This document shows, piece by piece, positions 7,837 through 63,486 of a DNA stretch of 64,000 nucleotides. How positions within the stretch are numbered: position 1 is the stretch's first letter; each line of letters starts with the position of its first letter. Both the position numbers and the translations under genes were made by a program. This DNA is from Dehalococcoidia bacterium (lineage in GTDB: Bacteria; Chloroflexota; Dehalococcoidia; Bin125): the NCBI GenBank assembly GCA_963663895.2, contig CAXXRD010000003.1, positions 128,001 through 192,000 on the forward strand. Reading direction: 5' to 3'. The notes under the pieces are model-generated. The model saw only the letters and a list, made by a program, of their open reading frames with translations. It searched no databases and was not told the DNA's origin.

Positions 7837-9169
7837 ATGTCGAATCCGCGCAACCGCTGGCGGCTGTTGCTCCTGGCTCCGATCACGCTGCTCGCTATCG
7901 CCGGCTTCGCGCTGGGGATCGGCGTCAAGGGGCTGCTGGACGGCGACGCCTCGGCGACGGGCTCGGTGCGCGCTTTGCGAGGCGGCGGCTCCGGCCCGGC
8001 GGTGATCGACTTCCAAGCGAACGAAGAGCGCGAATCGCGCTTCGGGTTGCTGGACGAGGTCTACGACATCCTCAGCCGTGAGTTCGTGGAGCCGGACCGG
8101 GTCGAGCTGGGAGGGCTGCGGACGGCGGCGATCAACGGCGCCGTCGGCGCGCTCAACGACCCGCACTCGGTCTACATCGACCGCGAGACCTTCCACCTCA
8201 GCAGCGAGAGCATCAGCGGGCAGTTCGAGGGGATCGGCGCGACCGTCGATCAGCAAAGCGAGGGGATCTTCATCACGGGGACCTTCCGCGGCTCGCCGGC
8301 CGAGGCGGCCGGCATCCGCAGCGGCGACGTGATCCTGGCGGTGGACGGAGAATCGACCGCGGGCTGGTCGGTGCAGTTCGCGGTGGCGCGCATCCGCGGC
8401 CACGCCGGCACGGACGTGGTGCTGACGGTGCGGCACCGCACGGGCCAAGTGGAGGATATTACGGTCACGCGCGGCGTGATCGTGATCCCGAGCGTGCAAG
8501 CGATTCAGGTGCAGGACGCCGCCGGCCTCGCCGTCGAGGACCTCGCCTATATCGCCATCTCGCAGTTCACGGAGAACACCCGCGAGGAGTTGGTGGCGGT
8601 GCTGGAGGGCGCGCGGGCGGCCCAGGTGGAGGGGCTCATCATCGACTTGCGCGGCAACCCGGGCGGGCTGCTCACGGCGACGGTGGAGGTGACGGGCGAG
8701 TTCCTGGACGGCGGCGTGGTGCTGACGGAGGTCAACCGCCAACGGCGATGAGCAGGCCTTCAACGACCAGCCCGGGGGCGCCGCCCTCGATATCCCCCTC
8801 GTAGTTCTCGTGAACGGCGGCTCGGCCTCCGGCTCGGAGGTGTTCGCGGCGGCCCTGCGGGACTACGGGCGAGCCGTTGTCCTGGGCGAGCAGACGCTGG
8901 GCAAGGGGACGGTCAGCATCCCCCGTCACCTCTCCGACGGCAGCGTGCTCTACGTGAGCACGGCGCGCTGGCTCACGCCCGACGGCGAACTGATCGAGGG
9001 GGTCGGCTTGATCCCGGACTTCATCATCGAGCCTTCAGACATCGACTTCGAGCAGCGGCGCGACGTGCAGCTCTTCGCGGCGATCAACTACCTGCGCGGC
9101 CTGCCGATCGAGACGTCACTGACCGCGCCCCAAGGGGTGGCCCAGGATCCGGAGCGCACGGATCCCTAA
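7837..9169 (+). CDS. S41 family carboxyl-terminal processing protease with PDZ domain, frameshift at ~8740
   Basis: N-terminal TM, FEGIG PDZ, IIDLRGNPGG, then (shifted) LVNGGSASGSE, GEQTLGKG, ARWLTPDG, G..PD. Confidence 0.9.
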
Positions 9170-10754: not shown

Positions 10755-12185
10755 TCAGATGGCCAGTATGGCGACTCCCGCCACCGCGACGCAGACGCCC
10801 AGCACGCCCCAAATAGTGACCCGCTCCTTGAGGAAGATCACCCCCAAGGGCAAGGCGAAGATGGTGGACATGGCGAACAGGACCGCAGTGGGGCCGGCGC
10901 CGATGTCCTTCACCGCGATGATGACCAGCATGGTGCCGAGACCGGTGGTGAGCGCCCCCGTCCCGCCGATCAGCGAGGCCGTGCCCTTGGGCGGGATCCC
11001 CGCCAGCGGCCTCCCGCGGCGCGCGATCGTAAACCAGACGATGAAGACGAGCATGGCGGGCCAGAGCTGCGCCAGGGCGACGGGGGCGACGTGGATGCCG
11101 GGAGCGACCACCCGCAGGATCGTCGCGTCGCCGGCCCAGCCCAGGGCGGTGATGCCGGCGATGGTGAGCCCGACGGCGAGGCGCGGCAGCGTGATCCCGA
11201 TCCCGGGAATCCGGACGCTCCCCGACACCGAGCGTCCTGCTTGCGCGTCGGCGGTCGAGCGCACAGCCGGGGACGCTGGTTTCCGGGACGCGGCGTTGGG
11301 CCACTGCAGACGGCGCGGCGGCGAGGCAGCCTGCACGATCCGCGCGCCGGCGCGCCCATGGAAAACGAAACGGTAGACGCCGCTGATGATGAGCAGAGCG
11401 AAGGCAAGCCGCAGGCCGCGGCGCGCGGGTCGCCCGGCCTGCCCAGTCCCTGCGGGGCGCCCGTGGAAAGCGCAATGGTAGACGCCGCTGAGGATGACGG
11501 CGGCGACGGTGAGCCCGACGGCGCGTCGCGGCAGCGTGATCCCGGTCCCCGGGATCCGGATCCCAGGCGCCGCCGGGCGCTCTGCTCGCGCGGCGGCGGC
11601 CGAGCGCACAATCGGGAATGGACGGCGTTGAGGCACAGCAACGGGCGGCTCTAGAGGACGCAGGGGGCGGGAGAGCGCGGTGGGGGGCTGGAGCGTAGCG
11701 GGGCGAAGCCACGGCGACCGCTGCGGCGGTGGCGGCGCTTGCCTGGCCTCCACGACGGCGCGGCCGTAGAAGGCAACGAGGTAGACACCGCTGAGGATGA
11801 CCGCCCCTCCTACAGCGTCACGCCAGCCGATCGCCTCGCCGAGGAAGATCGCGGGCAGGATGAAGGAGGCCACGCTGTAGAGGCCGATCACGGCGGTGTA
11901 GCCGCGGGTAAGCCCCAGGACCGCGAGCGTGAGGGTGTAAGCCGGCTCCGCCAGCACGTAGGCGGCCAGGCCCGCCAGCGCCAGCTGCCAGACGATATTC
12001 GGGTCCATGTGCCAAAAGTCGTCCTGCGCGCCCAGCGCGAACGTGGCGGCGATGATGAAGGTGACGGCGAAGATCGAGCGGAAGGTGACGATCGTGAGGA
12101 AGTCGATCTTGGCCAGCTTGGCCGTGAGGAAGGTGCCAGTCGCGGCCCAGATGACGGCATCGGAGAGGATGGCGACGACGCCCAT
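10755..12185 (-). CDS. DMT/EamA transporter with internally duplicated linker
   Basis: Two EamA halves (IFLGEAIG; IFLKERVT); tandem paralogue of the next gene with ~120 extra aa. Confidence 0.85.
   Translation of the reverse strand: MGVVAILSDAVIWAATGTFLTAKLAKIDFLTIVTFRSIFAVTFIIAATFALGAQDDFWHMDPNIVWQLALAGLAAYVLAEPAYTLTLAVLGLTRGYTAVIGLYSVASFILPAIFLGEAIGWRDAVGGAVILSGVYLVAFYGRAVVEARQAPPPPQRSPWLRPATLQPPTALSRPLRPLEPPVAVPQRRPFPIVRSAAAARAERPAAPGIRIPGTGITLPRRAVGLTVAAVILSGVYHCAFHGRPAGTGQAGRPARRGLRLAFALLIISGVYRFVFHGRAGARIVQAASPPRRLQWPNAASRKPASPAVRSTADAQAGRSVSGSVRIPGIGITLPRLAVGLTIAGITALGWAGDATILRVVAPGIHVAPVALAQLWPAMLVFIVWFTIARRGRPLAGIPPKGTASLIGGTGALTTGLGTMLVIIAVKDIGAGPTAVLFAMSTIFALPLGVIFLKERVTIWGVLGVCVAVAGVAILAI
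11157..11802 (-). repeat. Intragenic repeats in the DMT gene
   Basis: I(L/I)SGVY...F(Y/H)GR three times (~11353-11394, ~11458-11499, ~11761-11802); RIPG(T/I)GITLPR(R/L)AVGLT(V/I)A twice (~11157-11215, ~11505-11560), also conserved at DNA level. Confidence 0.85.
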
Positions 12186-12221: not shown

Positions 12222-13295
12222 CTAGAGGGCCAGCAGGGCGACGCCGCCGACCGCGACGGCGGCGCCGAGGACGCCCCAGATCGTGACGCGCTCCTTGAGG
12301 ACGATCGCGCTCAGCGGCATGGCGAAGATCGTCGACATGGCGAAGAGCACGGCGACCGGGCCGGGGCCGATCTCGCCGATCGCGAATACCAGCAGGATAG
12401 TACCGAGTCCCGTCGTGGCCGCCCCGGTGAGGCCGAGCACGAGTCCTGCCCGCGGCGTGAAGGCGCCTTGGAAGACGCGGCCGCGGCGGATCACGAGGAG
12501 CGCCAGCGCGATCACCAAAGCGCCGGGGGCGATCTGGATCACGGCCACCGCGGAGGCGTCGAAGGGATCGGCGATGGCGCGCAGCAAGGTCGTGTCGCCC
12601 GCCCAGGCAATGGCGGTGAGCAGCGCCACGAGCAAGCCGAGGAGAAAGCGCGGCAGGCGGATCGACGTGCCGGGGATGCGGACGGACGAGGACGGGCCGC
12701 CGGCGGCCGCGTCGGCGAGGCCGCTGCCGCCGCTGATGGGACGCAGCCCGCCGTCCGTCCGCCGCCGGGAACGCGAGAGCCAGCGCCGCCAGCGGGGCCC
12801 GCGATGCTCGGAGCGCGGCAGCGGCGGCTCCAGCCGCTCCTCCCCCACGCGCGGGGGTCGGCGGCGGCCGTAGAGGGCGACGATGTAGACGCCCGTGATG
12901 ATCACCACACCGCCCAGGGCCTCCTGCAGGCCGATCGGCTCGCCGAGGAAGACGGCGGGGAAGATGTAGGAGAACAGGCTGAAGAGGCCGATGACCACGG
13001 TGTAGCCGCGCGTGAGGCCAAGCAACCCCAGGCTGAGCACATAACCCGGCTCCGCCAGCACGTAGGCGACTAGGCCGCCAACGACGAGCTGCCACATCGT
13101 GTGGAAGCTCATCCCCCAGAGATCGGCCTGCGCGCCCAAGACGAACATAGCGGGAAAGACGAAGAGGAAACCGAATACGCTGCGAGAGGTGGCGACGGAG
13201 AGGAAGTCGATCCGTGCCAGCTTGGCGGTGATGATCGTGCCCGCGACCGCCCAAGAGCAGGCGTCGAGGAGCATGACGACCGCGCCCATGGCCAT
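12222..13295 (-). CDS. DMT/EamA transporter
   Basis: Two EamA halves (VFLGEPIG; IVLKERVT). Confidence 0.88.
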   Translation of the reverse strand: MAMGAVVMLLDACSWAVAGTIITAKLARIDFLSVATSRSVFGFLFVFPAMFVLGAQADLWGMSFHTMWQLVVGGLVAYVLAEPGYVLSLGLLGLTRGYTVVIGLFSLFSYIFPAVFLGEPIGLQEALGGVVIITGVYIVALYGRRRPPRVGEERLEPPLPRSEHRGPRWRRWLSRSRRRTDGGLRPISGGSGLADAAAGGPSSSVRIPGTSIRLPRFLLGLLVALLTAIAWAGDTTLLRAIADPFDASAVAVIQIAPGALVIALALLVIRRGRVFQGAFTPRAGLVLGLTGAATTGLGTILLVFAIGEIGPGPVAVLFAMSTIFAMPLSAIVLKERVTIWGVLGAAVAVGGVALLAL

Positions 13296-13451: not shown

Positions 13452-14220
13452 GTGGATCTCAAACAGCGAGTCGCGTTGATCACGGGCGGAGCGTCCGGGC
13501 TGGGAGCAGCCGCGGCGCGGATGTTGGCGGAAGAGCAGGCGCGCTTGGTGTTGGTGGATCTCGACGACGCCAAGGGCGAGGCGCTGGCGAGCGAGCTGGG
13601 CGAGCAAGGGCACTACCTGCGGGGGTGATGTGACGTCGCCGGAGGCAATGGAGGCCGCCGTGAAAGAGGCGGTCGACAGATTCGGGCGGCTGGAGATCGC
13701 GATCAACTGCGCCGGCATCGGAGGGTCGCAGCGGGTCACGGGCAAGCGCGGGCCCGCACCCCTGGACTGGTTCCGTCAAATCGTGGAGGTCAACCTGATC
13801 GGGACCTTTAACACGACCCGGCTGGCAGCGACGGCGATGTTGGAGAACCAGCCGGGCGCCGACGGGGAGCGGGGCGTGATCATCAACACGGCTTCGATCG
13901 CCGCCTTCGACGGCCAGATCGGTCAGGCCGCCTATGCCGCGTCGAAGGGCGGGATCGCGGGAATGACGCTGCCGATCGCGCGAGACCTGGCGCGCCACGG
14001 GATCCGCAACGTGACGATCGCGCCCGGGCTATTCGACACGCCCCTGCTCGCGCGGGTACCGGACGAGGTGCGGCAGGCGCTGGGAGAATCGGTGCCGTAT
14101 CCATCGCGACTGGGCGACGCGCCGGAATACGCCCTGCTGGTGCGCCAGATCATCGAGAACCGCTACCTCAACGGCGAGGTGATCCGGCTCGACGCGGCGC
14201 TGCGCATGGCGCCGCAGTAG
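13452..14220 (+). CDS. SDR oxidoreductase (3-hydroxyacyl-CoA dehydrogenase type-2-like), frameshift in G5 run 13621-13625
   Basis: GTG after AGGAGG; [36 protein letters not shown]. Confidence 0.9.
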
Positions 14221-14370: not shown

Positions 14371-15530
14371 ATGAAACGAGCGATTGGCTATCGAAGGCCG
14401 GCCCGCCAGGCGGGCTCCATCCAGCAGATGCGACGGCACCCGTGGCTGCTATGGGTCGCAGCCATAGCGATCCTCTCGATTCGCGCTCGTCGCCCTGTGG
14501 CGGCGACGATGAAGAGGCTGCGCCCAGTTCAGCCCCAGCCGAGAGCACCACAGCGGCCGCCCAAGAAGCGACCCAGCCCGCCGACGAACCCGAGACGATG
14601 GCCGAGATGGATCTCTCGGAGCTCAGCGGGACCGTTGAGATCGACGGCTCCAGCACCGTCTTCCCCATCACCGAGGGGATCGCCGAGGAGTTCGGCCTCC
14701 TCAGCGACGTGCGGGTGACCGTGGGCGTCTCCGGCAGCGGCGGCGGCTTCCAGCGCTTCTGCGCCGGCGAGACCGATATCTCCAACGCCTCCCGCCCCAT
14801 CAAGGAGAGCGAGATCGAAGCGTGTGCCGCGAACGGCATCGATTTCATCGAGGTCCCCGTCGCCTTCGACGGCCTCACCGTCGTCGTCAACCCCGAGAAC
14901 GATTGGGCCGACCACTTCACCGTGGCCGAACTCCATCACATCTTCCGGCCCGACGACTACGCCGAGAGCTGGGCCGACGTGCGCGCCGGCTTCCCCGACG
15001 AGGAGATCGTCATCTTCTCCCCCGGCGTCGACTCCGGCACCTTCGACTACTTCACCGAAACCATCAACGACGACAGCGGCGTCCAGCGCCAGGACAACAC
15101 CACCTTCTCCGAAGATGACAACGTCCTCGTCATCGGCGTCGCCAACGAGTTCGGCGCGATCGGCTACTTCGGCTTCTCCTACTACATCAACAACCAGGAG
15201 AATCTCCAAGCCGTCCCCATCGACGGCGGCGCCGGCCCCGTCTCCCCCACCACCGCCACTGTCAACGACGGCTCCTACGCGCCCCTCTCGCGGCCGCTCC
15301 TCATCTACGTGAAGACCAGCAGCCTCGACCGGCCGGAGGTCGCCGCCCTCGTGGACTACTACCTCTCCGACGGCCGTCCCATCATCGACTCGCCCGAGGT
15401 GGGCTACATCCAGCTGCCCGATAACTTCTACGCCGCCATCCGTCACCGGGTCGCCAACCGCGTCACCGGCTCCGTCTTCCCCGGCGCCCCCGAGGGCGCC
15501 ACCATCGAGAGCCTCTACGGCGTGCAGTAG
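14371..15530 (+). CDS. pstS: Phosphate-binding lipoprotein PstS; indels near 14479-14496 disrupt the signal peptide
   Basis: [43 protein letters not shown]; restored lipobox ALVAC-GG; AAGGAGG RBS. Confidence 0.9.
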
Positions 15531-15545
15531 GACAATTCGCCGCCT

Positions 15546-15626
15546 GTCCGGCCGGGATGCAATCCCGGCTGGACGACGGCACGCCCCCGGCGCCATCCTG
15601 CTCCAAGGCGCCGGGGCGGCGGCGTT
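15546..15626 (+). terminator. Two GC-rich hairpins after pstS
   Basis: GTCCGGCCGGGAT-GCA-ATCCCGGCTGGAC and CCCCGGCGCC...GGCGCCGGGG; only a short T run follows. Confidence 0.5.
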
Positions 15627-15748
15627 TAACTCCGCGAATCACGATTCGAATCGCGCTCCGGTTTCCGAGCCAGTGAGAGAACGCGACAGAATCCGCCGTT
15701 GAGTCGCCGCCTGGCATGCTTGAATCGCGGGAGTGTACGCTTCTAAAC

Positions 15749-16156
15749 ATGGCAGCCACGCTCGCGATCCAGGCCTTTCCTCGTGCCCAGTCCCGTCTGC
15801 TGAGACGGCCTGTCTGGATCGCGACGATCCTCCTGTTTGCCTGGCTACCGGCGCTCTCCTATCTGGACCACCTGCCGGCTCCCGCCGTCTTCGACTCGGG
15901 AACGCCTTTCAATAAACACATACACCCCAGCTCCAAGGCCAACGGGCTGAATCCCGTACACGGTCCCACCAGCGCCAGCCACAGCGCGCACGGCCACGGC
16001 GACAGCGGCGGGTTGGGATCCGGTGCAGTGCCTCTGATGATCGCTGCGGCCACGCCGACCCCCGAGCTGCCGGCGCCGGTGCTGGCAGCAATCACCACGG
16101 CAACACACTGGGCTGGGCGGCCAGCGGTCCGGCCTCCGACGCCTCCGCCGCGATAG
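15749..16156 (+). CDS. His-rich leader/uORF protein with C-terminal RPPTPPPR (DUF2946/CutF-like architecture)
   Basis: Signal/TM segment VWIATILLFAWLPAL, KHIH...SHSAHGH, Pro-rich end; ATG 7 nt after TACGCT. Confidence 0.65.
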   Translation: MAATLAIQAFPRAQSRLLRRPVWIATILLFAWLPALSYLDHLPAPAVFDSGTPFNKHIHPSSKANGLNPVHGPTSASHSAHGHGDSGGLGSGAVPLMIAAATPTPELPAPVLAAITTATHWAGRPAVRPPTPPPR

Positions 16157-16252
16157 CTCCCTCACCCGCTTCGCGGAGCGGCCGTCCCGGCTGCACCTCA
16201 ACCCTGTGCATCCGCAAGGGTCCTGCCATTGCGACGAAAGAGTTGTTTGCTC

Positions 16253-16832
16253 ATGGAAGCGTTTCTGTTTGGATCGAAGTTGCGGAAGCGGCTGATGTTG
16301 CCGGCTTGCGGAATGCTGGCCGCGGCGGTGGCACTGGCTGCAGCCTGCGGCGGCGAGGTGAGCGAATCGGAGTTCGAGACGCTCCAGCAGGAGGTGACGG
16401 AGCTGCGCGGCCTGCTGGAGCATGCCGGCGAGAGGGCGGACCGAGCGCTGCTGGTGGCGTCGCTGCCGGCGCTCCAAGTGGCGCAGTTTCACTCCATGGA
16501 CGAAGTGATCAACAACGAGCGCCTGATCCACGCCACCCATCCCGGGATCGTGATCCGCGCCATCAATACCCTGCAGGCGCCGATCTGGCCGACCGATCTG
16601 GATGCGCACGTACGCGGGGTTTCTCGCCGCGCTGCAGACCCTGGAAGGACCGATCCTGGACGATGACGCGCAAGCCGCCGGGCGCCCAGCGCGGGTCGTG
16701 CACGCCCATGCCCACGCCTTCGAGGAATCGGTGAACGCCTTCCTGGCGGGAGAAGCGGTCCCGCCGCCGCCCGCGATCAGCGATTCCACGGAGCCCAGGC
16801 ACGATCATCAAGCCTCCCAAGGCCACGAGTAG
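16253..16832 (+). CDS. His-rich lipoprotein, frameshift at 16616-16619
   Basis: Lipobox AAAC-GG, coiled coil, QFHSMDE, HATHP, shifted frame VHAHAHAF...HDHQ..GHE. Confidence 0.7.
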
Positions 16833-16959
16833 GTCAGCGAGGAGCACGATAGGGAGGGCGAAGGGATGGCGGACGCAGAGGGCGCGGAACCCGGCCATCC
16901 CGACTCCGGGGACGGGAAAGACGAAGACGGCTAGGAAGGCGCGCACGACGGCTACGAAG

Positions 16960-17681
16960 ATGAGGACAAGCACGAAGAGACGGCCAGATCCGGCTGGGGC
17001 CGGATCGAGGGCGACGCCAGCCCCGGTCTGGCTCCTTCTCGGCATCGCCGCGATGGCAGTCGTGATCGGCGGCCTCCTGTGGCCCAGCCGGGCCGAGGGC
17101 GCACGCTCGCTACGTCCGCTCCGAGCCCGCGTTCGCCGCCGAGCTCGTGAAGGCGCCGGATCGCATCGACCTCTGGTTCAGCCAGCAGCTGTTCCGCCGC
17201 CAGGGCGCAAACACGATCCGCCTGCTGGACTCCACCGGGACGGAAAGACCCCTTGAGCGAAGCGCTGATCGACAGCGCCGACCGCCAGCACCTCTTCGCC
17301 AGAATCGTGGAACCGCTCCCGCCGGGTCGCTACATCGTCGAGTGGACCAACCTCTCCGCCGAGGACGGCGACACGGATTCTGGCCACTATCCTTTTTATG
17401 TCGCATATCTTCCCACGGCTGTCGACACAGCGAACGACCGTGCCCTCGCCGAAGATCTCTTGATTCCGTACCCCGGTAACGAGTCCGATCAAGGGCAAAT
17501 CGAAGCAGTTGAAGGGACGGAAGCGGATGCCCTCGGTCCCGTCACCCTGCCGCTGGCTGTGGAGCCGGACGAGGGCGGGATCGGTGCGGGGCCGATCGTG
17601 CTGGCGATCGTGAGCGCGTTGGCGGTGGCAGGGCTCGTTGGGAGCCGCTTGGTCAAGGCGAGGAGGGATCGGAGGCCGTGA
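16960..17681 (+). CDS. CopC-family protein with C-terminal membrane anchor; two frameshifts (17097-99, 17249-52)
   Basis: Restored: signal-AEA|HARYVRSEP...PDRIDLWFSQ...LPPGRYIVEW.NLSAEDGDTDSG...TM. Confidence 0.8.
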
Positions 17682-18728
17682 AGACCCTCCTCGCAGCGGC
17701 GGCGCTGCTCGTAGCGGGAGTGACAACAGTCGCTTGCGGAAGCGAGGCACCTCCAATCGGGCAGAGCGCTCCATCTCCCCCGCCGACGCCGGCCGCCGAC
17801 GCAGGCAAGGCGCTCGGCGTACCCGGGCTCAGCGTCTACTCGGTCGGAGGGGACCTTCAGCTGGAACGGAACGGCGATCTGCGGAAACTGGTAGTCGCGC
17901 CCAGCTTGAACGTCTCATACCTATCGCCGCGGATCTCGCCCGACGGCCAAGCGGTGGCCTATGTGCGCTTGGCGATTTTCAGTGGAAGCGAGGCGGCCAC
18001 GGTGCTCAGCGACATTCGGGTAGCCGACCTCGAAGGCGGAGGGCGCGTCGTCGTCACGCCGAGAGGCGAGGGGGCGTTCGTGTGGGCGCCGCAGTGGTCA
18101 GCCGATCAGGGATCACTCGTTTACGCACACCAACTGAACCAACCGGACGCCGCAGGTCGCGCTTTCCAGGTCAACGTCGAGCGGGTCGACCTAACAACGG
18201 GCGAGAGCGAGATCTTGGTGACGAACGCGCGAGACCCAGCGCTCTCGCCCGACGGGCGGCTGCTGGTATTCGTCGACGACCCCGCGCTCGCACACAAGCT
18301 CTCGGTACTGAACCTAGAGACGGGCGAGCGGACGCCGCTCCTTGCGCTCAGCGACGGTCTGGCCGTGTTCCGCCTGCCCCAGTTCTCGCCCGACGGGGAA
18401 TGGATCGCGGTAGCGGCCTCAGGAGAGGGCCGGTTGGTGTCCAGCCGGCCGGTGCCCGCCGTGCTCAACCGCAGCAACGGCGTTCAGGACGTCTGGCTGA
18501 TCCGCCCCGGACGGCAGTGGACTGCACCGACTCACGGCCGTGCAGGAGGATCAGCCCGACTTCGCTTGGTCCCAAGACGGGCGGCACATTCTCCTGCGCG
18601 GAACATTCGGCATATATCTCGCCGAGGTGAGCACGCGCAGGACGCGTACGATCCTCGTGCCGGGCGAACTCCACGGGACGCACGACTGGCACGGATCGCT
18701 TCCGGTAGATCCGGCCGAGGCGCCGTGA
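17678..18728 (+). CDS. TolB-like (PD40) beta-propeller lipoprotein, frameshift at 18505-18508
   Basis: TVAC lipobox; repeats ISPDG, WSADQ, LSPDG, FSPDG, WSQDG (last in track ORF 18540..18728). Confidence 0.8.
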
Positions 18729-21038
18729 CCACTCGTGCGCCCCGCGCGCTCTTCGCACTGGTCGCGCTCGGCGGCCTCATCGCCTGGCTCTGGCTCTCCA
18801 CCGAGCCGGTCGCCGGGCACGCGTTGCTGGAGCGCTCGGATCCGCCGATCAACGCCACCCTGCGGGAGTCTCCGCGGCTCGTGAACCTGATCATGACGGA
18901 GCCCCTCCAGCAAGACTTCTCGGGGATGGAGGTGCTCGACAGCCTAGGGCGGCGCGTGGATCGCGGCGGCGTGCTCTTCAACCCCGAGGATGCCACGCAG
19001 ATGAGCACCCGGGTCGAGCCGCTCGATCCGGGGATCTACACCGTCGCTTGGCGAACGCTGTCCGAGGTAGACGGGCACACATGGACGGGGTCGTTCTCGT
19101 TCACGGTGCTGAATCCGGACGGGAGCACGCCAGCCGGGACGGTCTTCGCGCCCGACCTCTCACGGCCCGGACCGCCCGCGGGCGCGGACGCGGCCGTGCG
19201 ATGGTTCAGCTTCACGGCGCTCATCGGGCTGGTGGGCGGCGCGCTGTTCGCCTTGTGGGCGGCAGGCCCGGCCGCGCGCCTGGTTGGAGGAGCCGGGCCG
19301 CGCTTCGCGGAAGCGGCGCTGGGCTACGCCTGGGAGGGGGCGACCTTCGCGGTCGTGCTGCTGATCTGCACGACGGGTTACGACGCGGCCGCCGCCGCGC
19401 TGCGGCTCGGCGGGCTGGCATTCCTGGACGAGACGCTGTTCGACACCCGCAACGGGCTGTGGCTGCTGATCCGCTGGCTGCTCCTCCTGATGACGGCGGC
19501 GCTGCTACTGACGGTGCAATGGCGGCCACGGCTGCGGGCGTCACGAGAGGCGCTGCTCACGCTCCTGATCTTGGGCGCAGGGCTGATCGGAAGCTTCGCG
19601 AGCGTGAGCCACGGCGCGGCGCTGGACCAAGGCTGGATCTGGGCCACGTTGTTCGACGCGCTGCACCTGGCAGCGGCCGCCGTGTGGATCGGAATGCTCG
19701 CGGCGCTGGTATGGACGCTGTGGGCCACACGCCGAGCCGCGGAGCAACGGCAGCGGCGCACGTTCCAAATCGAAGCCGTGCGCCGCTTCTCCTGGGCAGC
19801 GGCGGGCTGCGTTCCGATCTTGATCACGGCGGGCCTCCTCAGCCTGCTGGCCGCAGTACCGGCCCTGCACGGCTTCATCGACACCTCCTGGGGCGTAGCG
19901 ATGCTGGTAAAGCTGGGGGTGCTGGCTCTCTTGTTCATGGTGGCGGCGACAAACGCGCTGGCGTTGCGCCCACGCTCACAGCGGGCGGGGACCGCAGGGA
20001 ACGAGACTTCGCGGCTAGAACGTCGCTTCCGAACGCTGATGCGGATAGAGCTGGGACTGGCGCTGGTCGTGCTCGCAGCAAGCGCCGCCCTGACGCAGCT
20101 ACCGTCGGCTCGGAGCGAGCTGCCGGCGGTCGCTGCGGTCCAGAAGGAGCGCGCGATCAGCGAGACGGTCGCGCTCAGCGACCTGACGGCGCGGCTGACG
20201 ATCGAGCCGAATCTTGTGGGCCTGAACCGCTACGCGGTGGAACTCGAAGGGGTAGGCGACGGACCGATCGATCCGGTGACGGAAGTCCGGCTCCACTTCC
20301 GCTACGAGGACCCGAGCGTGGGCCCCGTGATCATACCCGCGGAGCCGGAGGGCGGCCGCTACGTGATCGAGGGGGTGTTCTTCGGGCTGGCCGGCGCTTG
20401 GGATGTCGACATCGAGGTCCGGCGCGAACGCTCGGACGACGTCATCGGCGGGATCACGACCAACGTCGAGCAAGGATTCATCGAAGTGCTGCCCTTCGGG
20501 CAGGCGCAGCCAGGCGCCCTGAGCCTGCCGATCACGCAGTTCGACTGGAACGGGATCGGGGCCCTGTGGGCGGCGCTGGGAGCCGGTCTCCTGATCGCCT
20601 ACCGGGCGCCGCTGCGCAAGCGCGTATCGCCGCGCGCGGGCGATCTGTCGCTGGCGGCGGGGGCCCTGTGCATGGCGACGGCGGTGGTCCTCCTCTGGGG
20701 CTTGGAAGTGGAGCCGGGGCGGACGCAGGAGAACCCGGTGGAGCGGACCGCGGCATCGATCGCCAACGGCGCGGCGCTGTTCGCGACGAACTGCGCCCAG
20801 TGCCACGGCGAGGACGGGTTGGGGGACGGGCCGCTGGCAAGGACCTTGCCCGCGCCGCCGGCCAACTTCCGCGTGCACGTGCCCTTCCATCCCGACGGCG
20901 TGCTGTTCACCTGGATCAGCGACGGGATCCGCGGCACGGGGATGCCGGCCTGGAGCGACGCGTTGAGCGAGCAGGAGCGCTGGGACCTGGTGAACTTCCT
21001 ACGGGCGAACTTCGACCGGCCGCTGGACCCCCGGCTAG
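18725..21038 (+). CDS. CopC-CopD-YtkA-cytochrome c fusion
   Basis: GTGA overlap; HALLERSDP, Y.VAWRTLSEVDGH; CopD SHG, LHLAAAAVWIG, RRFS; Ig-like GRYVI...AGAWDV; CAQCH heme motif, GMPAW; end 21038 assumes an extra C in 21028-32 (else 21115). Confidence 0.88.
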
Positions 21039-21054
21039 CGACGCGCCTCTCAAG

Positions 21055-21630
21055 CTACAGATGCTTGGTAGCGACGAGAAGATCCCGAGTACGGCCCTCG
21101 GCATCGATCACGTAGTCGAACAGAACGGCCTCGCGCTGGAAGCCCAACCGCCGGAAGACCGCCTGTGCAGCAGCTTGGTCGAGAGTCATCCGCGCCGTGA
21201 GCATGCGCAAGCCGAGTGTCTGGGCGATCGCTTCGATCTCGCCGGCCAGCAGGCGGCCTAGCCCCTGACCCTGCCCCTCCGGCGTGATCAGCAGGCGGAT
21301 CTCGCCAAGGTGGCGGGTCCAAGTCGTGGCGTTGTGCAGCAACGTACCTTCGCCGACGAGTCGGTCGTCGACGAAGGCGAGCACAGTAGTCGTGCGCCCT
21401 GCCTCGATAGCGGCGATCCAGGCATCGACCGCTGCCGGCTCGGTGATGGTGGCGGGGAGAAAGAGGAGGTCATTCGGCGGGATGGCGCGGGCGAACGTGA
21501 GGACGGCCTCGCGATCGTCCGCGTCCATGAGCCGCAGCTCTACGGAACGGCCGTCGGCAAGCGCGCCGCGTTTCGGGTAACGCGACAGGATCGCCTCGGC
21601 GCCCAGGGAGAGGATTGACGGAGTGGTCAT
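21055..21630 (-). CDS. GNAT N-acetyltransferase
   Basis: QGQGLG acetyl-CoA motif, FRRLGF; AGGAG RBS before ATG 21630. Confidence 0.85.
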   Translation of the reverse strand: MTTPSILSLGAEAILSRYPKRGALADGRSVELRLMDADDREAVLTFARAIPPNDLLFLPATITEPAAVDAWIAAIEAGRTTTVLAFVDDRLVGEGTLLHNATTWTRHLGEIRLLITPEGQGQGLGRLLAGEIEAIAQTLGLRMLTARMTLDQAAAQAVFRRLGFQREAVLFDYVIDAEGRTRDLLVATKHL

Positions 21631-32582: not shown

Positions 32583-33638
32583 TTATGCACCGGCCGACTC
32601 GCCGCCCTCGGTGCCGGCAGAGGCGGGAACGAGGAGCGCGTCGACGAAGGCCGCCGGAGCGAAGGGGGCGAGGTCATCAAGACCTTCGCCGATACCGACG
32701 AAGCGCACCGGCAGTCCCAGTTCCCGCGTCACGGCGAAAACGGTGCCGCCCTTGCTGGAACCATCCAGCTTGGCGAGGCAGACGGCGGTCACCCCCACCG
32801 CCTCACGGAAGAGGCGCGCCTGGCTGAGACTGTTGCGGCCGGTGTTGGCGTCGAGCACGAGCAACACTTCGTGGGGGGCGCCCTGCACCCGCCCGGCGAT
32901 CACACGGCGCACCTTGGCCAACTCGGCCATGAGGTTTCTCTTGGTCTGGAGACGGCCGGCTGTGTCGATCAGGACGAGCGCCGCGTCGCGGGCCACGGCC
33001 GCATCAAGCGCATCATAGGTGACGGCGCCGGGATCGGCGCCGGGAGCATGCGCGATCACAGCAGCTCCGACGCGTTCGCCCCAGTGACGCAACTGCTCCA
33101 CCGCGGCGGCGCGGAACGTATCTGCGGCGGCGATGACGACGTCATGGCCCTCGCCGCTGTAGGCGTGAGCCAGCTTCGCAATGGTGGTGGTCTTGCCAGC
33201 GCCGTTCACTCCAACCACAAGCACCACGTGGGGAAAAGGCGGCTCGGGTCGATCTCCCCTCACGACTCCAGGATCCCAGAGGGCGCCGCCAGGGGCGGCC
33301 GGAGAATCGCCGCGGTCGGGCGACCCCAGTAAGGCGATCAGATCATCGCGCAGACGCGCGCGCAGGGCGGCGGCACCGGCAACGTCGGCGGCGCGCAGAC
33401 GCTCGATCAGGAAGGTGGCGGTCGGCACGCCGAGGTCGGCCTCAATGAGGATCTCCTCAAGCTCATCCCAAAGCTCTTCGTTGATCGGACGGCGGCGCAG
33501 CACCGCTCCGATCCGTCCGATGGCGGAGCGGCGGCTGGGAGCGGTCACGCGCTCCATACGGCGCGCCAGCTCGGCCGCCTCGTCCTGCTGCGCTCCCAGG
33601 TCGGACTGGGCGTTACGACCGATGCGGAGCAGCCTCAC
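32583..33638 (-). CDS. ftsY: SRP receptor FtsY
   Basis: GVNGAGKTTT, DTFRAAA, DTAGRL, KLDGSSKGG. Confidence 0.97.
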   Translation of the reverse strand: MRLLRIGRNAQSDLGAQQDEAAELARRMERVTAPSRRSAIGRIGAVLRRRPINEELWDELEEILIEADLGVPTATFLIERLRAADVAGAAALRARLRDDLIALLGSPDRGDSPAAPGGALWDPGVVRGDRPEPPFPHVVLVVGVNGAGKTTTIAKLAHAYSGEGHDVVIAAADTFRAAAVEQLRHWGERVGAAVIAHAPGADPGAVTYDALDAAVARDAALVLIDTAGRLQTKRNLMAELAKVRRVIAGRVQGAPHEVLLVLDANTGRNSLSQARLFREAVGVTAVCLAKLDGSSKGGTVFAVTRELGLPVRFVGIGEGLDDLAPFAPAAFVDALLVPASAGTEGGESAGA

Positions 33639-33664
33639 CGCAGAGCCTCGCCAGCGTCCGCGCG

Positions 33665-36600
33665 CTACTCAGCGAGGTCGAGCTCGGCCAGGCGCACGGA
33701 GAGGACACGGCTCACGGAGTCCTCCCCCATGGTGATGCCGTAGATGGCGTCGGCCTGTTCGATCGTGCGGCGATTATGCGTGATCACGACGAACTGAGTG
33801 CGCTTGGCCAGCTCCTTGAGGGCCGCTACGAAGCGATCGACGTTGGCTTCGTCCAAAGCGGCATCGACCTCGTCGAGGACGCAGAAGGGAGCGGGGTTGA
33901 CTTCCAGCACCGCGAAGAGCAGGGCGATGGCGGTGAGGGCGCGCTCCCCACCGGAGAGCATGGAGAGCGCCTCCACGCGCTTGCCGGGCGGCTGTGCCTC
34001 AAGCTCGACGCCCCCCTGATCCCAGTCGTCGTCCGTGATCGTGAGCTGCGCGTGTCCGCCGCGGAACATCGTCTTGAAGTAGCGCCGAAACTGCTCGTCG
34101 ACTTCCTCGAACGTCGCGCGGAAGGAGACACGGATCAGCCCAGTCAGTTCGGTCTCGATCTCCAGCATGCGGCGCTCAGCAGCTTCGAGGTCGGTGACTT
34201 GGCCACTGAGATAGGCATGCCGTTCGCTGATCTCCTTGTATTCGGCCGCCGCATCAACGTTGACGGTGCCAAGCCGGCGCAGGCGGGCGCGATTCTCTTC
34301 GACCAGCTCGCGCAGATCGTCGTCGGAGAGGCTGGCCATCTCGGGATCGTCGGCGACGGGAACGGGCAGTGATCCAAGGGAGCGCTCCACAGGCGCCTCG
34401 TCCACGGTCGCACCGTTCTCTTGATCTTCGCCCGCCCGCGAAGGAGCGGAAACGTCAGAGCCGCCCTCGACCACGGTGCGCGCGGCGGAGCGGTTCGCGT
34501 ATATCTGAGCGGCGGCGGGAGCGCGCTCCCCCATCCCCACGTCTCCTCGGCCGGGGGACCCCTCGGGAAGTGCGTCCAGCATGAGTATGCGGCCGCGGCC
34601 GTCGACATCGAACCCGTCGGTACGCATCGCTTCACGCAAGCGCTCGCGGGCCGCCTGGCTCTCCCCGAGCGCAGCCTTGGCGTTCAGCAGGGCGCGATCC
34701 GCAGCGAGCAACCCTTTCTGAGCGGCTTGCACGGTCTCGCGACGGGCGCTCTCTATGTCGGCGAGACGGGAAACGGCATCACGGTCCGGGCTAGCGGCGA
34801 GAGTGGCAGCGTGCTCCTCGCGCAGGTGAACGAGGTCGCGCTCGCGCCGGACGGTCTCCTCCGCGATCGCGGCGATCTCATGATCAACCTCTTGCAGCCG
34901 AGCGTTGCGCGCTTGGCGCTGCTCACGCATACGGACTTGGGCGGCGGCGCGGGCGCGCAAGGCCGCTTCGATCGTCTCGTGGCGGCCCGCGAGCGCGCTA
35001 TGGCGGGCCTCCGCCTCTCCGACGATCTGCGCATACTCACGACGGCGGCTGGCGAGCGCTGCGATCGCGGCAAGGGCCGGCCGTCGGCCTTCGATCGCGT
35101 CGATCTCGGCGTTGCGAGTCGCGGCCTCCTGACGGAGGCGCGCCTCTTCCTCCTCGATAGTGGCCAGGCGCGCGCGGGCGCGCGCGGCCTCCGCCTCCAT
35201 ACTCTCGAACTCGCCGCGCAAGCGAAGCGCTTCAGCGCGGCGGCCAGCGGCATCATCGATAGCGGCCGCGCGTTGCTCAGTCGTGTGCTCGGTTTCGGCC
35301 TCGGCGGCGCTGAGCTGGCGCTCGATATCGGCCAACTCGTCTTTCCGCTCTTCGTACTCGGCAGATTGCTGCAGGGATCGTTCGAGATCGGCGATCTCGC
35401 CGGGCAACGACTGCAGCTCACTCTCGCGGGCGAACGAGCTGCTCCTGGCCACCTCACCGCCGATGATGGCGCCGAGCGGACGCAACAGATGGCCTTCGCG
35501 AGTCACCACGCTACTCATCCCCCGCCCAAGGATCTGACGAGCGGCAGGAATGTCCTCCACAACGATGGTGCGACCGAGCACGCTGTCGATGAGGGGGCGA
35601 AAGCGATCGTCGCACTGAACGAGGGCGGATGCCGTGCCGATCACGCCGGACTCGCGCTGGAGCGCGAGCGGGCTTCGGTGCCGCAGCGTATCGAGCGGGA
35701 GCGTGACGATCCGTCCAGCGTGCTCACGCGAGAGCGCATCAATGACTTGGAGCGCTTGCTCGGCGTCATCGAAGACGACGGCATCCACGTAGTCCTCAAG
35801 GGCGGCCTCGATCGCGCGCTCAAGGCCACGGGGAACGCGCATCAAGTGGCGGAGCACGCCGAGCACGCCGGGAATGCCGGTGGGCTCGGCGCCACGGGGC
35901 ACGCCGCGACCGCCGAAGAGGGCGCGCAGCCCTTGGCGCATGCCCTCGCTTTCCGCCTGCATCGCGCGCAGGATCTCGAGTCGGTCACGCGCCGCCTGCA
36001 AGCGCCGCTCACGGGCGGCGCGTGCACTTTCCAAGTTGCGAATGTAGGCGGAAACGGCGTAGTAGCGCTGGACCAAGCCCTCGCGATTCTCGCGCGCTTG
36101 CTTGGCCGCGGCCGCGGCCGCGCTACTGGCCTCCTCGGCGCCCGTAGCGACAGCCTCGGCTTCCTCCAGCGCGGCTTGCATGGTTGATCGGCGCGCCTCC
36201 CCCGTATCGCCGCGAAGGCGCTCGCACTCGGCGGCGATATGATGCAAGCGCGCATCGTCCTCAGCATGAGCGCCACGGAGGCGAGCGAGATCTCCATCGA
36301 CCTCGATCAGCCGACCGCGGACCACTTCCTGCTCCGCATCGACCTGAGCGAGGCGGTCGCGGGCGGCGGTGAGCGCCTCTTCGGCTTCCCCGAGGGACCG
36401 TTCCAAGCTGGGGTCCAGCTCGATGGGGACATCGCGCGACGCTGCCGCGCCGTCGCGATCGAGCGCGCTCAGGTCCCGCCGCAGTTCGGCGGCGCGATCA
36501 GTAAGCAGGCGCCTGCGCTCCTCCGCCAGCGCCTGCTCCTGTTCGAGACGACGGACGTGATCGGCGCGGCGGCGCTGCTCGGCGGCAGCGCGCTCGCTCT

Positions 36601-62022: not shown

Positions 62023-63143
62023 CTAGCTGAAGACCACGTCCGCGAGCTTGTCCATGGCCACGCGTCGCGCCTCCGGCAGCATGTGTGCGTAGATATCGGC
62101 CGTGGTGCTCATCTGCTGGTGACCTAGGAGGTCCGAGACTTCCTTCATCCCGACCCCCGCCCCCAGAAGATAGGTCGCCGCTCCGTGGCGCAGGTCGTGG
62201 AAGCGGATGCGCGGCAGCCCGGCCCGCTTGAGGTGACGCTGGAGGGTATGGGTGACATTCGTGCCATTCAGCGGCTGCCCGTTCCGCGTGACGAAGACCA
62301 GTCGCCAGGAGAAGCGCACGATCTGGGCGCGCCGATGCCTGCGTAGGGCCGCCACCAGGGGCGGAGCCAGGGCCAGCGTGCGGCGGGAGCGGTCCGTCTT
62401 GATGTCGTCGAGGTGGTAGGCCCCGTCGTAGCGCTTCAGGCTGCGCCGTACGGTCAGCGTCCCCGCCTCGAGGTCCACATCCGGCCAGGTGAGGCCCAAC
62501 AGCTCGCCCTGGCGCATGCCGGTGGCGATGGCCAGCTGGAAGAGCGCCTCCAGCCGATCGCCTGCGATCTCCTGGAGGAGGGTCTGCGTTTGCTCCGGCG
62601 TCAGCGGGCGGACCTCCTTGCGCGGGGGTGTTTGCAGCCGCACCAGGCGGGCGACGTTGCGGGAGACCAGCTCCTGGCGCTCCGCCTCGGCCAGGGCCGA
62701 ACGCAGCACCGCCCGGACGTAGCGCCGCCAGGCGGGGCGATCGGCCAGGGTGTGGAAGTAGGTTTGTAGGTCGGCCACGGAGAGCCGGGTGAGGCGGCGA
62801 TGCCCCAGGTTGGGAATCAGTTGCGTTTCGACGATGTTCCGGTAGCCGTACAGGGTCGCGGGCCGGATGCGCTCGGCGGCGACGTGGGCCAGCCAGTGGC
62901 GCAGCCACTGCTCGACGGTGAGGTGGGGGTCGGCGGCGAGGCCGCTAAGCCCGCGCGTGCGTTCGCGCTCGGCCAGCCGTGTGCGCAGGACCGCCTCCGC
63001 CTGGGTGCCGGGCACGACCTCGGATCGGTAGCGGCGGCGGGCACCGCTGCCGATCGACCAGCGGGCCTGAAAGAAGCCCGGTGCAGTTGCCGGACGGAGC
63101 CGGACCCGTGCGGTCGTTTGGAGCCTGAGCGGGAGCGCGGCAT
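62023..63143 (-). CDS. Tyrosine integrase, frameshift near 63084
   Basis: Restored N-terminus MPRSRSGSKRPHGSGSVRQLAPG; catalytic GMRQGE, KT, HDLRH, LLGH, DIYAH. Confidence 0.92.
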
Positions 63144-63287
63144 GCCCAAACACTACGGCTGGCGGCAGCCCGCGAGACACCCCCGAGAAGTGGCACGGGA
63201 GTGGCATGCCCAGCCGGGCGTCCCACTTCGAGCGGGGTGGGGGTGCGCAGATTCCCCTCGGATCGTAGGGAAATCGCGAGGGGTGGG

Positions 63288-63363
63288 TGGTGAGCCGCCT
63301 AGGACTCGAACCTAGAACCGGCTGATTAAGAGTCAGCTGCTCTTCCAATTGAGCTAGCGGCCC
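63288..63363 (-). tRNA. tRNA-Lys(CTT)
   Basis: GCTGA-CTCTTAA-TCAGC anticodon arm, GGTTCGAGTCC T-arm, encoded CCA. Confidence 0.97.
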
Positions 63364-63486
63364 ACGCTGATCTGCGCCCCTCCGAGCGGGCGAGTTGTGC
63401 CGACGATCTTAGCACCGACAGAGCCGAGCAGCGCCCCGGACCGCGGCGCGCCGGGACAGAGGGAAAGACCGTCCGCAGCGCCCAGA

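Follow-up and report, generated by a model that had tools for sequence, protein, structure and literature searches.

A Candidate Histidine-type Arrest-peptide Leader Upstream of a CopC/CopD Operon in Chloroflexota

Introduction

The closest described counterparts of the gene reported here are two upstream open reading frames (uORFs) of Pseudomonadota, those for CruR of Bordetella pertussis and CutF of Rhodobacter capsulatus, which to our knowledge are the only metal-sensing arrest peptides studied so far and are both Cys-based. The gene itself is a uORF of 135 codons at positions 15749–16156 (plus strand) of a 64,000-nucleotide (nt) stretch of DNA from a Dehalococcoidia bacterium of the phylum Chloroflexota (contig CAXXRD010000003.1, positions 128,001–192,000), which we refer to as the window. 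It lies upstream of genes for a lipoprotein, CopC, a TolB-like propeller, and a CopC-CopD-cytochrome c fusion. From comparison of sequences we conclude that it is probably a His-type version of the regulation known from CruR and CutF.

CruR (Bp2923) is a protein of 145 amino acids (aa) in which a CXXC motif and a RAPP motif are separated by 45 residues. According to its published description, this spacing is kept to 1–2 residues in >2000 proteins of the DUF2946 family and matters for regulation (PMC9426467). The same description places regulation at the level of Rho-dependent termination at a C>G bubble, which extends from the 3′ part of the open reading frame (ORF) into the intergenic region; copper relieves the arrest and leads to Rho-dependent termination, and the regulation is independent of the signal peptide and of elongation factor P (EF-P) (PMC9426467).

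CutF, encoded in the cutFOG operon, has 118 aa with a mature part of 90 aa, the motif C41xxxC45 (mature numbering), and the end P109EPEGPPPRL118 (PMC9973294; 10.1101/2025.02.05.636593). From the published numbering we calculated a distance of ~40 residues between C45 and the first Pro of PPP. The stall site is described as PEPEGPPPRL followed by the stop codon; with PAP in place of PPP copper control is lost, the absence of EF-P has the same effect as copper, and the ribosome stalled on CutF melts a stem-loop that covers cutO's Shine-Dalgarno (SD) sequence (10.1101/2025.02.05.636593). Both CruR and CutF are reported to act in cis, the proteins themselves being barely detectable (PMC9973294; PMC9426467).

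The window locus resembles the CutF locus in that a small protein, predicted to be exported, is encoded directly upstream of copper genes and combines an N-terminal Sec signal (putative in the window protein), a metal-ligand motif, a spacer (~40 residues in CutF), and PPPR beside the stop codon; the tetrapeptide PPPR is common to the CutF stall site and the family of the window protein. The two differ in their ligands, which are CxxxC and two further Cys in CutF and HxxHGH and H41 without Cys in the window protein, in the next gene, which encodes a multicopper oxidase in the one case and a lipoprotein followed by CopC/CopCD in the other, and in phylum (Pseudomonadota and Chloroflexota, respectively). 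They also differ in that the short cutF-cutO intergenic region contains the SD-masking stem-loop, of which we found no conserved counterpart at the window locus. Beyond its homology step, a jackhmmer search from CutF, the operational filter for CutF-like proteins (PMC9973294) uses features that were all found in the window, namely a length of 135 aa, a PPPR end, an Arg-rich n-region with an N-terminal helix, and a lipoprotein gene 96 nt downstream on the same strand.

Like CruR, the window protein is of moderate size (145 aa in CruR) and is encoded at the head of an operon related to copper; common to both are also a metal motif joined to an arrest motif with Pro by a spacer of conserved length (45 residues in CruR and 45–52 here), an arrest motif a few residues from the stop codon, and a predicted lack of structure. 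A C>G bubble resembling the rut region of CruR is seen as well, in part imposed by the Pro codons; in each case the bubble extends from late in the ORF into the long stretch before the next gene (162 nt in B. pertussis and 96 nt in the window). The motifs, however, are CXXC and RAPP in CruR and HxxHGH and PPPR in the window protein, and the gene that follows cruR encodes a TonB-dependent transporter.

Other described proteins share parts of this layout. In the sequence similarity network of CutF-like proteins published by Ozturk et al. in 2023 (PMC9973294), clusters 14 and 17 are described as having a His-only putative site, a C-terminal PP, and a signal peptide, but as being encoded beside HupE/UreJ (nickel and cobalt) rather than CopC/CopD. 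Entries from Chloroflexota also exist in list D of that work, although they are scarce (PMC9973294). Because His-only clusters and a few Chloroflexota members are thus already contained in PMC9973294, the uORF is less unprecedented than was implied by an earlier note on this DNA, and some members of the family described below may overlap with clusters 14 and 17 or with the Chloroflexota entries. Among the titles of literature on DUF2946 and copper, on CutF-like proteins, and on CutF stalling, none concerned Chloroflexota or a His-only family linked to CopC/CopD. CzcI (PF28244) of Cupriavidus metallidurans, which is counted as CutF-like, is likewise small and exported and is encoded upstream of genes for metal efflux, but in the published classification it is without the C-terminal proline motif (PMC9973294), and we found no significant sequence match between it and the family. 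SecM, MifM, and VemP resemble the window protein in combining an N-terminal export signal with a C-terminal arrest sequence, the arrest being released by pulling force at the membrane (PMC9973294; 10.1101/2025.02.05.636593). Their role differs from that proposed for the uORF: they report on export capacity and regulate sec or yidC genes, a metal-ligand motif is missing from them, and they are not similar in sequence to the family of the window protein.

Results and Discussion

Conservation of the uORF

The uORF consists of 135 codons and a TAG stop codon, and its product (P0001) starts with MAATLAIQAFPRAQSRLLRRP, an Arg-rich n-region, followed by the hydrophobic helix VWIATILLFAWLPALSYL. After the helix come DH(41)LP, a variable stretch with KHIH and VHG, and SHSAHGH (H78, H81, and H83), and the C-terminal part is an Ala/Pro/Thr-rich stretch that leads into the end RPAVRPPTPPPR-TAG (RPPTPPPR-stop). 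The product contains eight His and no Cys. The earlier note had described the 135-aa ORF, a TACGCT hexamer 7 nt before its ATG, a signal or transmembrane (TM) segment, the lack of Cys, the Pro-rich end, and a gap of 96 nt to the next gene, and all of these were confirmed from the sequence.

The G+C content of the window is 68%, and the coding pattern of the genome is only weak in the uORF, the first half of which has a G+C fraction of 0.63/0.51/0.76 at codon positions 1/2/3, compared with 0.64/0.46/0.90 in a neighbouring gene. Composition alone is therefore insufficient as proof of a gene. We compared the uORF with that of L001, a syntenic locus in a Chloroflexota metagenome-assembled genome (MAG) and the sole genomic locus found for a relative. 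Between the two there is no indel, 337 of 408 columns are identical, and the ratio of nonsynonymous to synonymous change (dN/dS) is 0.34 overall. By segment, dN/dS is 0.10 for residues 1–48, 0.97 for residues 49–72 (the fast-evolving segment that holds KHIH and VHG), 0.31 for residues 73–96, and 0.21 for residues 97–128, and residues 129–135 show no nonsynonymous change. In both loci for which DNA is available, the window and L001, the uORF and the copper operon share a strand, with the uORF 96–97 nt upstream. The alignments indicate that the 135-aa ORF is a genuine conserved gene and not a chance frame.

An in-frame ATG further upstream, at 15716, was considered as the start and rejected; it is not present in L001, which reads GCG CCT there, and the Met at 15749 is invariant in close relatives. 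Neither the uORF product nor the longer ORF 15716–16153 had a match in scans against Pfam and NCBIfam.

Invariant Motifs and a Spacer of Conserved Length

Of 95 candidates from a first word-seeded search, 7 proved to be relatives at E ≤ 0.01, with identities of 47–92%. The profile built from the first relatives was compared with 1.84 billion cluster representatives and yielded 10 proteins at E ≤ 1e-3; two more profile rounds, each of which scored the best 8000 word-sharing candidates, yielded 40 proteins at E ≤ 0.1 in the one case and 21 at E ≤ 10 in the other, the latter round having drifted into one subgroup. The resulting family set comprises 56 sequences, 55 database proteins and the window's own. 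An alignment of 41 of them leaves out the near-duplicates P0002, P0004, and P0006, the 77-aa fragment P0009, P0042 with its aberrant C terminus, and ten sequences from the last profile round. The organism is named for three relatives, all of them Chloroflexota (a Chloroflexota bacterium, Thermoflexaceae, and Dehalococcoidia).

The columns invariant in the 41-sequence alignment are P34, H41, H78, H81, H83, P129, P132, P133, P134, and R135. The motif HxxH[G/C]H, whose residues H78, H81, and H83 are putative metal ligands and which reads HSAHGH in the window (15980–15997, plus strand), was found in 56 of 56 family sequences. In 54 of the 56 it is accompanied by PPPR; the exceptions are P0051, which has PPPK, and P0042, which lacks PPPR. 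The tail between PPPR and the stop codon is 0–5 residues long in all 54 motif-bearing sequences. In the window, PPPR and the stop codon (CCT CCG CCG CGA TAG, 16142–16156, plus strand) form the putative arrest site. A conserved Pro-rich terminus had been chosen beforehand in the earlier note as the feature whose absence would count against its proposal, and with PPPR in 54 of 56 sequences and PPPK in one more the proposal is not refuted on this point.

The distance from the last His of the motif to the first Pro of PPPR is 45–52 intervening residues (n = 54, S.D. 2.5), whereas the linker from H41 to the His motif varies from 22 to 51 residues (n = 53, S.D. 6.7). Mean pairwise identity is 0.20–0.21 in both linkers, compared with 0.52 in the helix region (residues 21–48), 0.66 in the His motif, and 0.78 in PxxPPPR. 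Judged by the alignment, the C-side linker, which in the window is the spacer of residues 84–131 (15998–16141, plus strand), is conserved in length and not in sequence and acts as a ruler. The conserved TM-His-Pro spacing expected in the earlier note is thus found between the His motif and PPPR, where 45–52 residues match the 45 of CruR.

The motif-bearing sequences fall into two subgroups. The 24 sequences of the HGH subgroup, with HxxHGH, have a spacer of 45–48 residues and no tail after PPPR (24 of 24), and the 30 sequences of the HCH subgroup, with HxxHCH-x4-5-C, have a spacer of 50–52 residues and a tail of 1–5 aa (30 of 30). The suggestion of a Cys-free, His-ligand polyproline version therefore holds for the HGH subgroup, to which the window protein belongs, but not for the 30 of 54 motif-bearing sequences that contain Cys (HxxHCH…C). 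Similarly, of the His cluster proposed as the ligand site (KHIH, VHG, and SHSAHGH), SHSAHGH is conserved through H78, H81, and H83, whereas KHIH and VHG are not, and the invariant H41 had been overlooked.

H41 is part of an invariant DH at the end of the N-terminal helix (residues 21–39; 15809–15871 with DH, plus strand), which is predicted from AlphaFold2 and the alignment to be a signal anchor or signal peptide and ends in the family motif AWLPxLx[YF]x[DG]H. The AlphaFold2 model, based on the 41-sequence alignment, contains helices at residues 21–31 and 33–39 with block values of the predicted local distance difference test (pLDDT) of 83–90. Its predicted template-modeling score (pTM) is 0.27 and its mean pLDDT 63, with pLDDT <50 across residues 82–99 and a moderately confident helix at residues 109–122. 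According to this model, the uORF product is without a globular fold outside the N-terminal helix.

The family has few traces in existing annotation. No precomputed Pfam domain was found among the 55 family proteins from the database searches, and NCBIfam scans of the 41 aligned members gave scattered low-complexity matches only, such as one to a His-Xaa-Ser repeat (2 of the 41; E 0.0044). A tblastn search of 72,556 plasmids gave five chance-level matches to unrelated genes for P0001 (E 1–8) and none for P0040. An hmmsearch of all stop-to-stop ORFs of ≥40 aa in the window and L001 detected no paralogues beyond the two orthologues.

Relation to DUF2946

The proposal that the uORF is a counterpart, in Chloroflexota and ahead of copper genes, of the DUF2946 uORFs was upheld for the architecture and failed at the threshold of the Pfam profile (PF11162), whose gathering score is 23.7 bits. 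The window protein itself gave no match to DUF2946 even at E ≤ 10. Of 13 members scanned individually, three matched, with E values of 0.056, 0.13, and 0.43 (14.6–11.8 bits), and when 41 members were scanned there were four matches, the best at E 0.021, all of them sub-threshold. No other Pfam family, however, was matched by several members, and the matches to DUF2946 run colinearly along nearly the whole profile (positions 6–112). When protein-language-model features were compared with named Atlas clusters, the nearest were CzcI (0.94) and “DUF2946 domain-containing protein” (0.93), values that serve as leads only.

With regard to motifs, the CXXC of CruR or the CxxxC of CutF is not present in the window protein, which has HSAHGH at the equivalent place. 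A stop-proximal Pro motif of the arrest-like DUF2946 type is present as PxxPPPR, invariant in 41 of 41 sequences, and the spacing of ~45 residues from metal motif to arrest motif typical of DUF2946 is present as 45–52 residues in 54 of 54. The sub-threshold, colinear profile matches suggest, short of establishing it, a remote kinship of the family with DUF2946; the likeness to the DUF2946 uORFs may stem from deep homology or from convergence.

RNA Features at the 3′ End of the uORF

The intergenic region of 96 nt (16157–16252, plus strand) matches that of L001 in 84 of 97 columns of the alignment. Synonymous sites of the uORF are 69% identical, with a proportion of synonymous differences (pS) of 0.31 in the uORF and 0.16 in the gene for a PstS-like protein. 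The intergenic region is at least as conserved as the synonymous sites of the uORF.

Two adjacent hairpins, well defined in both loci, lie around the stop codon. The first, hairpin A (16148–16176, plus strand), pairs CCGCGA-U-AGC, made up of the codons for Pro134 and Arg135, the stop codon, and one base, with GCU-UCGCGG; its arms are at 16148–16157 and 16168–16176 and enclose a 10-nt C-rich loop. For both the window and L001, the minimum-free-energy fold and the centroid fold contain it. The 59–60-nt segment at 16142–16200 folds with −24.8 kcal/mol in the window (z −2.68, 4 of 200 shuffles as good), and the corresponding segment of L001 with −20.2 kcal/mol (z −4.22, matched by 0 of 200 shuffles). 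Because the arms are identical in the window and L001, no covariation test is possible. The last sense codon, CGA, which is followed by TAG in both the window and L001, is required for the pairing; CGA is rare: of the 1163 Arg codons counted in 23 ORFs of the window, 52 are CGA. A different hairpin had been put forward in the earlier note, CCGCTT-CGCG-GAGCGG just past the stop codon, but it has a C·A mismatch in L001 (GAGCAG) and is not chosen by the minimum-free-energy folds.

The second conserved structure, hairpin C (16178–16194, plus strand), has the sequence GCGGCCG-UCC-CGGCUGC and is not followed by a U-tract. In L001 one of its G·U pairs is replaced by A-U and one inner C-G pair is lost, which leaves a stem of 5 bp. 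The terminator scan found no terminator between the uORF and the operon; in the scanned 1.9 kb there were two terminator-like sites, compared with 0.9 ± 0.9 in shuffled sequences, which is chance level, and neither is intergenic. One terminator-like hairpin at chance level, GGATCGCGACGATCC followed by a T-rich run, lies at 15816–15830 (plus strand), inside the helix-coding part of the uORF.

In the profile of C minus G, a C>G bubble (16128–16219, plus strand) takes in the end of the uORF and the beginning of the intergenic region. The excess of C is +18 to +20 per 78 nt around 16128–16160, which is at least at the 98.8th percentile of 78-nt windows on both strands, and +24 in L001. A search of 15300–16600 against Rfam gave nothing relevant and only a chance microRNA match at E 0.38.

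A Proposed Mechanism and Its Alternatives

In the mechanism that we propose, the N-terminal helix would target the nascent chain to the membrane and the translocon and leave H41 at the outer face of the membrane. PPP slows peptide-bond formation in an EF-P-dependent manner, and peptide-bond formation would accordingly be slower on a ribosome that has reached the stop-proximal PPPR. At that point HxxHGH would be ~50 residues from the peptidyl-transferase centre and would therefore be just out of the tunnel or the translocon. A metal bound by H78, H81, and H83, with or without H41, would alter the pulling force on the chain or its folding, and with it the time for which the ribosome dwells on the last codons. 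A plausible metal is Cu(II), given a motif that consists of His alone, would be exposed on the outside, and is encoded beside CopC genes. A dwelling ribosome would keep the hairpin at the stop codon open and cover the start of the C-rich, G-poor stretch, and its dwell time would set expression of the downstream genes; Rho-dependent termination as in CruR is weakly favoured over unmasking of a start as in CutF, and the 3′ end, rich in C and poor in G, would suit an output of the Rho type. We infer stalling at PPP, binding of metal by the His residues, and a coupling to export. The invariant positions of the family (H41 at the end of the helix, HxxH[G/C]H, and PxxPPPR) are the elements that such a mechanism needs and therefore support an arrest-peptide uORF. 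On balance we think it likely, with some reservation, that the 135-aa ORF belongs to the CruR/CutF type of uORF, encoding an arrest peptide that senses metal and acts in cis, and that it heads the operon for the lipoprotein, CopC, the propeller, and the CopC-CopD-cytochrome c protein.

Several observations weigh against this assignment. At 135 aa the uORF is long for a simple leader, even if CruR and CutF are of similar length (145 and 118 aa, respectively), and between the window and L001 its spacer is under purifying selection (dN/dS 0.21–0.24), as would also suit a stable functional protein. No family member scanned reaches the DUF2946 gathering score. The gene context rests on the window and L001, which are ~87% identical; the two loci being so closely related, they amount to one independent observation of gene context. 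Some of the C excess in the C>G bubble is imposed by the Pro codons, and both hairpins fall within the bubble. As for structures that could mask the downstream SD sequence or start codon, none was found; the folds are no better than those of shuffled sequences, with z-scores for the window and L001 of −1.0 and +0.6 (16130–16275), −1.1 and +0.7 (16157–16270), and −0.3 and +0.7 (16200–16275), respectively, and they differ between the loci. SD masking in the manner of CutF is therefore unsupported, and the conserved hairpins (16148–16194) lie at least 35 nt upstream of any candidate SD sequence for the lipoprotein gene. We also considered occlusion of the start, once hairpin A is opened, by pairing of CGCTTC in the 3′ arm of this hairpin (16167–16172) with GAAGCG in codons 2–3 of the lipoprotein gene (16256–16261); this 6-bp match is broken in L001, which reads GAACCG, and is therefore probably due to chance.

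Three other explanations were weighed. The uORF product could be a stable, membrane-anchored, His-rich extracytoplasmic protein that binds metal and works in trans with CopC and CopC-CopD as a copper chaperone or buffer, in which case PPPR would be a protein contact or a structural cap. CopC and CopD use His-based Cu(II) sites, and a partner of this kind would suit the four invariant His, the location beside CopC/CopD genes, the purifying selection over most of the protein (dN/dS 0.10 in the N terminus, 0.31 in the His motif, and 0.21 in the linker), and the moderately confident helix at residues 109–122. Such a protein, however, offers no reason why PPPR should stand 0–5 residues from the stop codon in 54 of 54 sequences or why a spacer should keep its length at 20% identity, no globular fold is predicted for it (pTM 0.27), and the same architecture in CruR and CutF acts in cis with proteins that are barely detectable. 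We regard this explanation as rather unlikely.

An arrest or pausing peptide could also serve, in the manner of SecM, MifM, or VemP, to report secretion capacity or EF-P activity, the His motif being incidental or structural. A signal anchor combined with a C-terminal arrest-like motif is indeed the general layout described for force-sensing monitoring substrates (PMC9973294), and an FtsY gene is present in the window (32586–33668, minus strand), albeit far off. Against this stand the downstream genes, which are concerned with copper handling and not with components of Sec or YidC, and the finding that outside PPPR the most conserved residues are four His, joined by Cys in the sister group, that is, classic metal ligands; we consider a sensor unrelated to metals improbable. 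If the ORF were no gene at all, the frame and its Pro-rich end would be by-products of a G+C content of 68%, and a long 5′ untranslated region or an RNA element would account for the conserved DNA. High-GC DNA does yield many spurious Pro/Arg-rich ORFs, and in its second half the ORF shows only a weak pattern of G+C across codon positions. Yet the protein is conserved down to ~20–30% identity with invariant residues and no disruption of the frame in 55 database proteins, dN/dS is 0.34 overall and 0.10 in the N terminus, and the Rfam search of the region returned nothing relevant, so that this last explanation is highly improbable.

Returning to a metal-sensing arrest-peptide uORF, we put forward a broader proposal more tentatively, as a possibility on the doubtful side of even: that the family consists of Chloroflexota-specific, Pfam-invisible nascent-chain sensors that detect extracytoplasmic Cu(II) through an all-His site (H41 and HxxHxH) connected to PPPR by a fixed ruler of 45–52 residues. 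If this broader proposal is correct, a ligand motif, a ruler of ~45 residues, and a Pro arrest would make up a general design that is portable across ligand chemistries, from Cys to His with HCH…C intermediates, and that spans types of cell envelope and two distant phyla through either very deep homology or convergence. An all-His site in this ruler-and-arrest layout would free the principle from thiol chemistry and from the periplasm, and the output would pass through stop-codon hairpins and a rut-like C-rich tract instead of SD unmasking. The family would then offer a natural series for the coupling of ligand to arrest at PPP, from HGH without a tail and with a spacer of 45–48 residues to HCH…C with a tail of 1–5 aa and a spacer of 50–52 residues. 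It would also provide an annotation rule for a recurrent “hypothetical protein” in Chloroflexota MAGs and a candidate cis-regulator for a copper operon without a nearby transcription factor; among the 32 window ORFs scanned, we found no metal-responsive regulator.

Upstream Region and Promoter

The proximal upstream region (15715–15748, plus strand) is conserved, with 28 of 34 columns identical to L001, compared with 51 of 137 columns in the region further upstream (15611–15714). A 21-mer identical in the window and L001, TGAATCGCGGGAGTGTACGCT, contains TACGCT (15736–15741), a candidate −10 element 7 nt before the ATG. GGGAG at 15729–15733 resembles an SD sequence, but at 15 nt before the ATG of the uORF it is too distant for a normal one. 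A leaderless start had been proposed, and the geometry agrees with it; a sigma-70-like promoter was not found, the promoter scan of 15400–17300 returning 0 such sites because there is no −35 element at 16–18 nt.

The Downstream Operon and Its Surroundings

The gene order is intact in the syntenic locus L001, where it reads SDR, PstS-like binding protein, uORF, lipoprotein, CopC, TolB-like propeller, and CopC-CopD-cytochrome c, followed on the opposite strand by GNAT, isocitrate lyase, and malate synthase. The operon that begins 96 nt after the uORF had been described as starting with CopC/CopD; this needs correction, as the next gene encodes a lipoprotein without an assigned family, CopC comes second, and the CopC-CopD-cytochrome c fusion is fourth, as seen in L001. 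A separate CopC together with a TolB-like propeller and a CopC-CopD-cytochrome c protein is an unusual make-up for a copper operon.

The lipoprotein gene (16253–16832, plus strand; lipobox LAAAC) encodes 227–235 aa and is frameshifted in the window by a 1-nt insertion at 16613. Its product had no match in Pfam or NCBIfam, Atlas feature scores were ≤0.77, and the structural neighbours were generic helical bundles with TM-scores <0.5 by query. The Atlas model is helical-bundle-like (pTM 0.56), and in L001 (8506–9189) the protein has HAHAH and a tail rich in His, Asp, and Glu, whereas the window has a 48-nt insertion at 16871–16918 and a different tail. The lipoprotein may be a metal-binding partner of CopC. 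The CopC gene (16960–17681, plus strand) encodes 242 aa in L001 and is spread over three frames in the window by 1-nt insertions at 17097 and 17249. It is followed by the gene for the TolB-like β-propeller (17678–18728, plus strand; 349 aa in L001), which in the window runs in silico into the following gene through a 1-nt insertion at 18505, and by the gene for the CopC-CopD-cytochrome c fusion (18725–21115, plus strand, start approximate; 770 aa in L001, 10932–13244), whose end in the window is altered by a 1-nt insertion at 21028.

In total, single-base insertions relative to L001 were found at 13621, 16613, 17097, 17249, 18505, and 21028, three of the six in short runs of G or C. They split or fuse the genes for SDR, the lipoprotein, CopC, and the propeller and leave the uORF unaffected, and they are the reason why CopC appears in three frames and why an apparent ORF of 1145 aa for a “propeller-CopC-CopD-cytochrome c” protein is seen. 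These insertions look like homopolymer assembly errors rather than biology; otherwise they would reflect decay into pseudogenes. An upstream gene for an S41 peptidase is also represented by two overlapping ORFs (8726–8748).

Elsewhere in the window, two tandem genes of the EamA transporter family lie on the minus strand at 10755–12185 and 12222–13295 (476 and 357 aa, respectively), each with a long Pro/Arg/Ala-rich insert between two EamA halves. The rest of the window contains housekeeping genes, including those for SmpB, MutS/MutL, SMC, FtsY, LepA, KsgA, and the glyoxylate shunt, and near its end lies a gene for a tyrosine recombinase of the phage-integrase family (62026–63408, minus strand).

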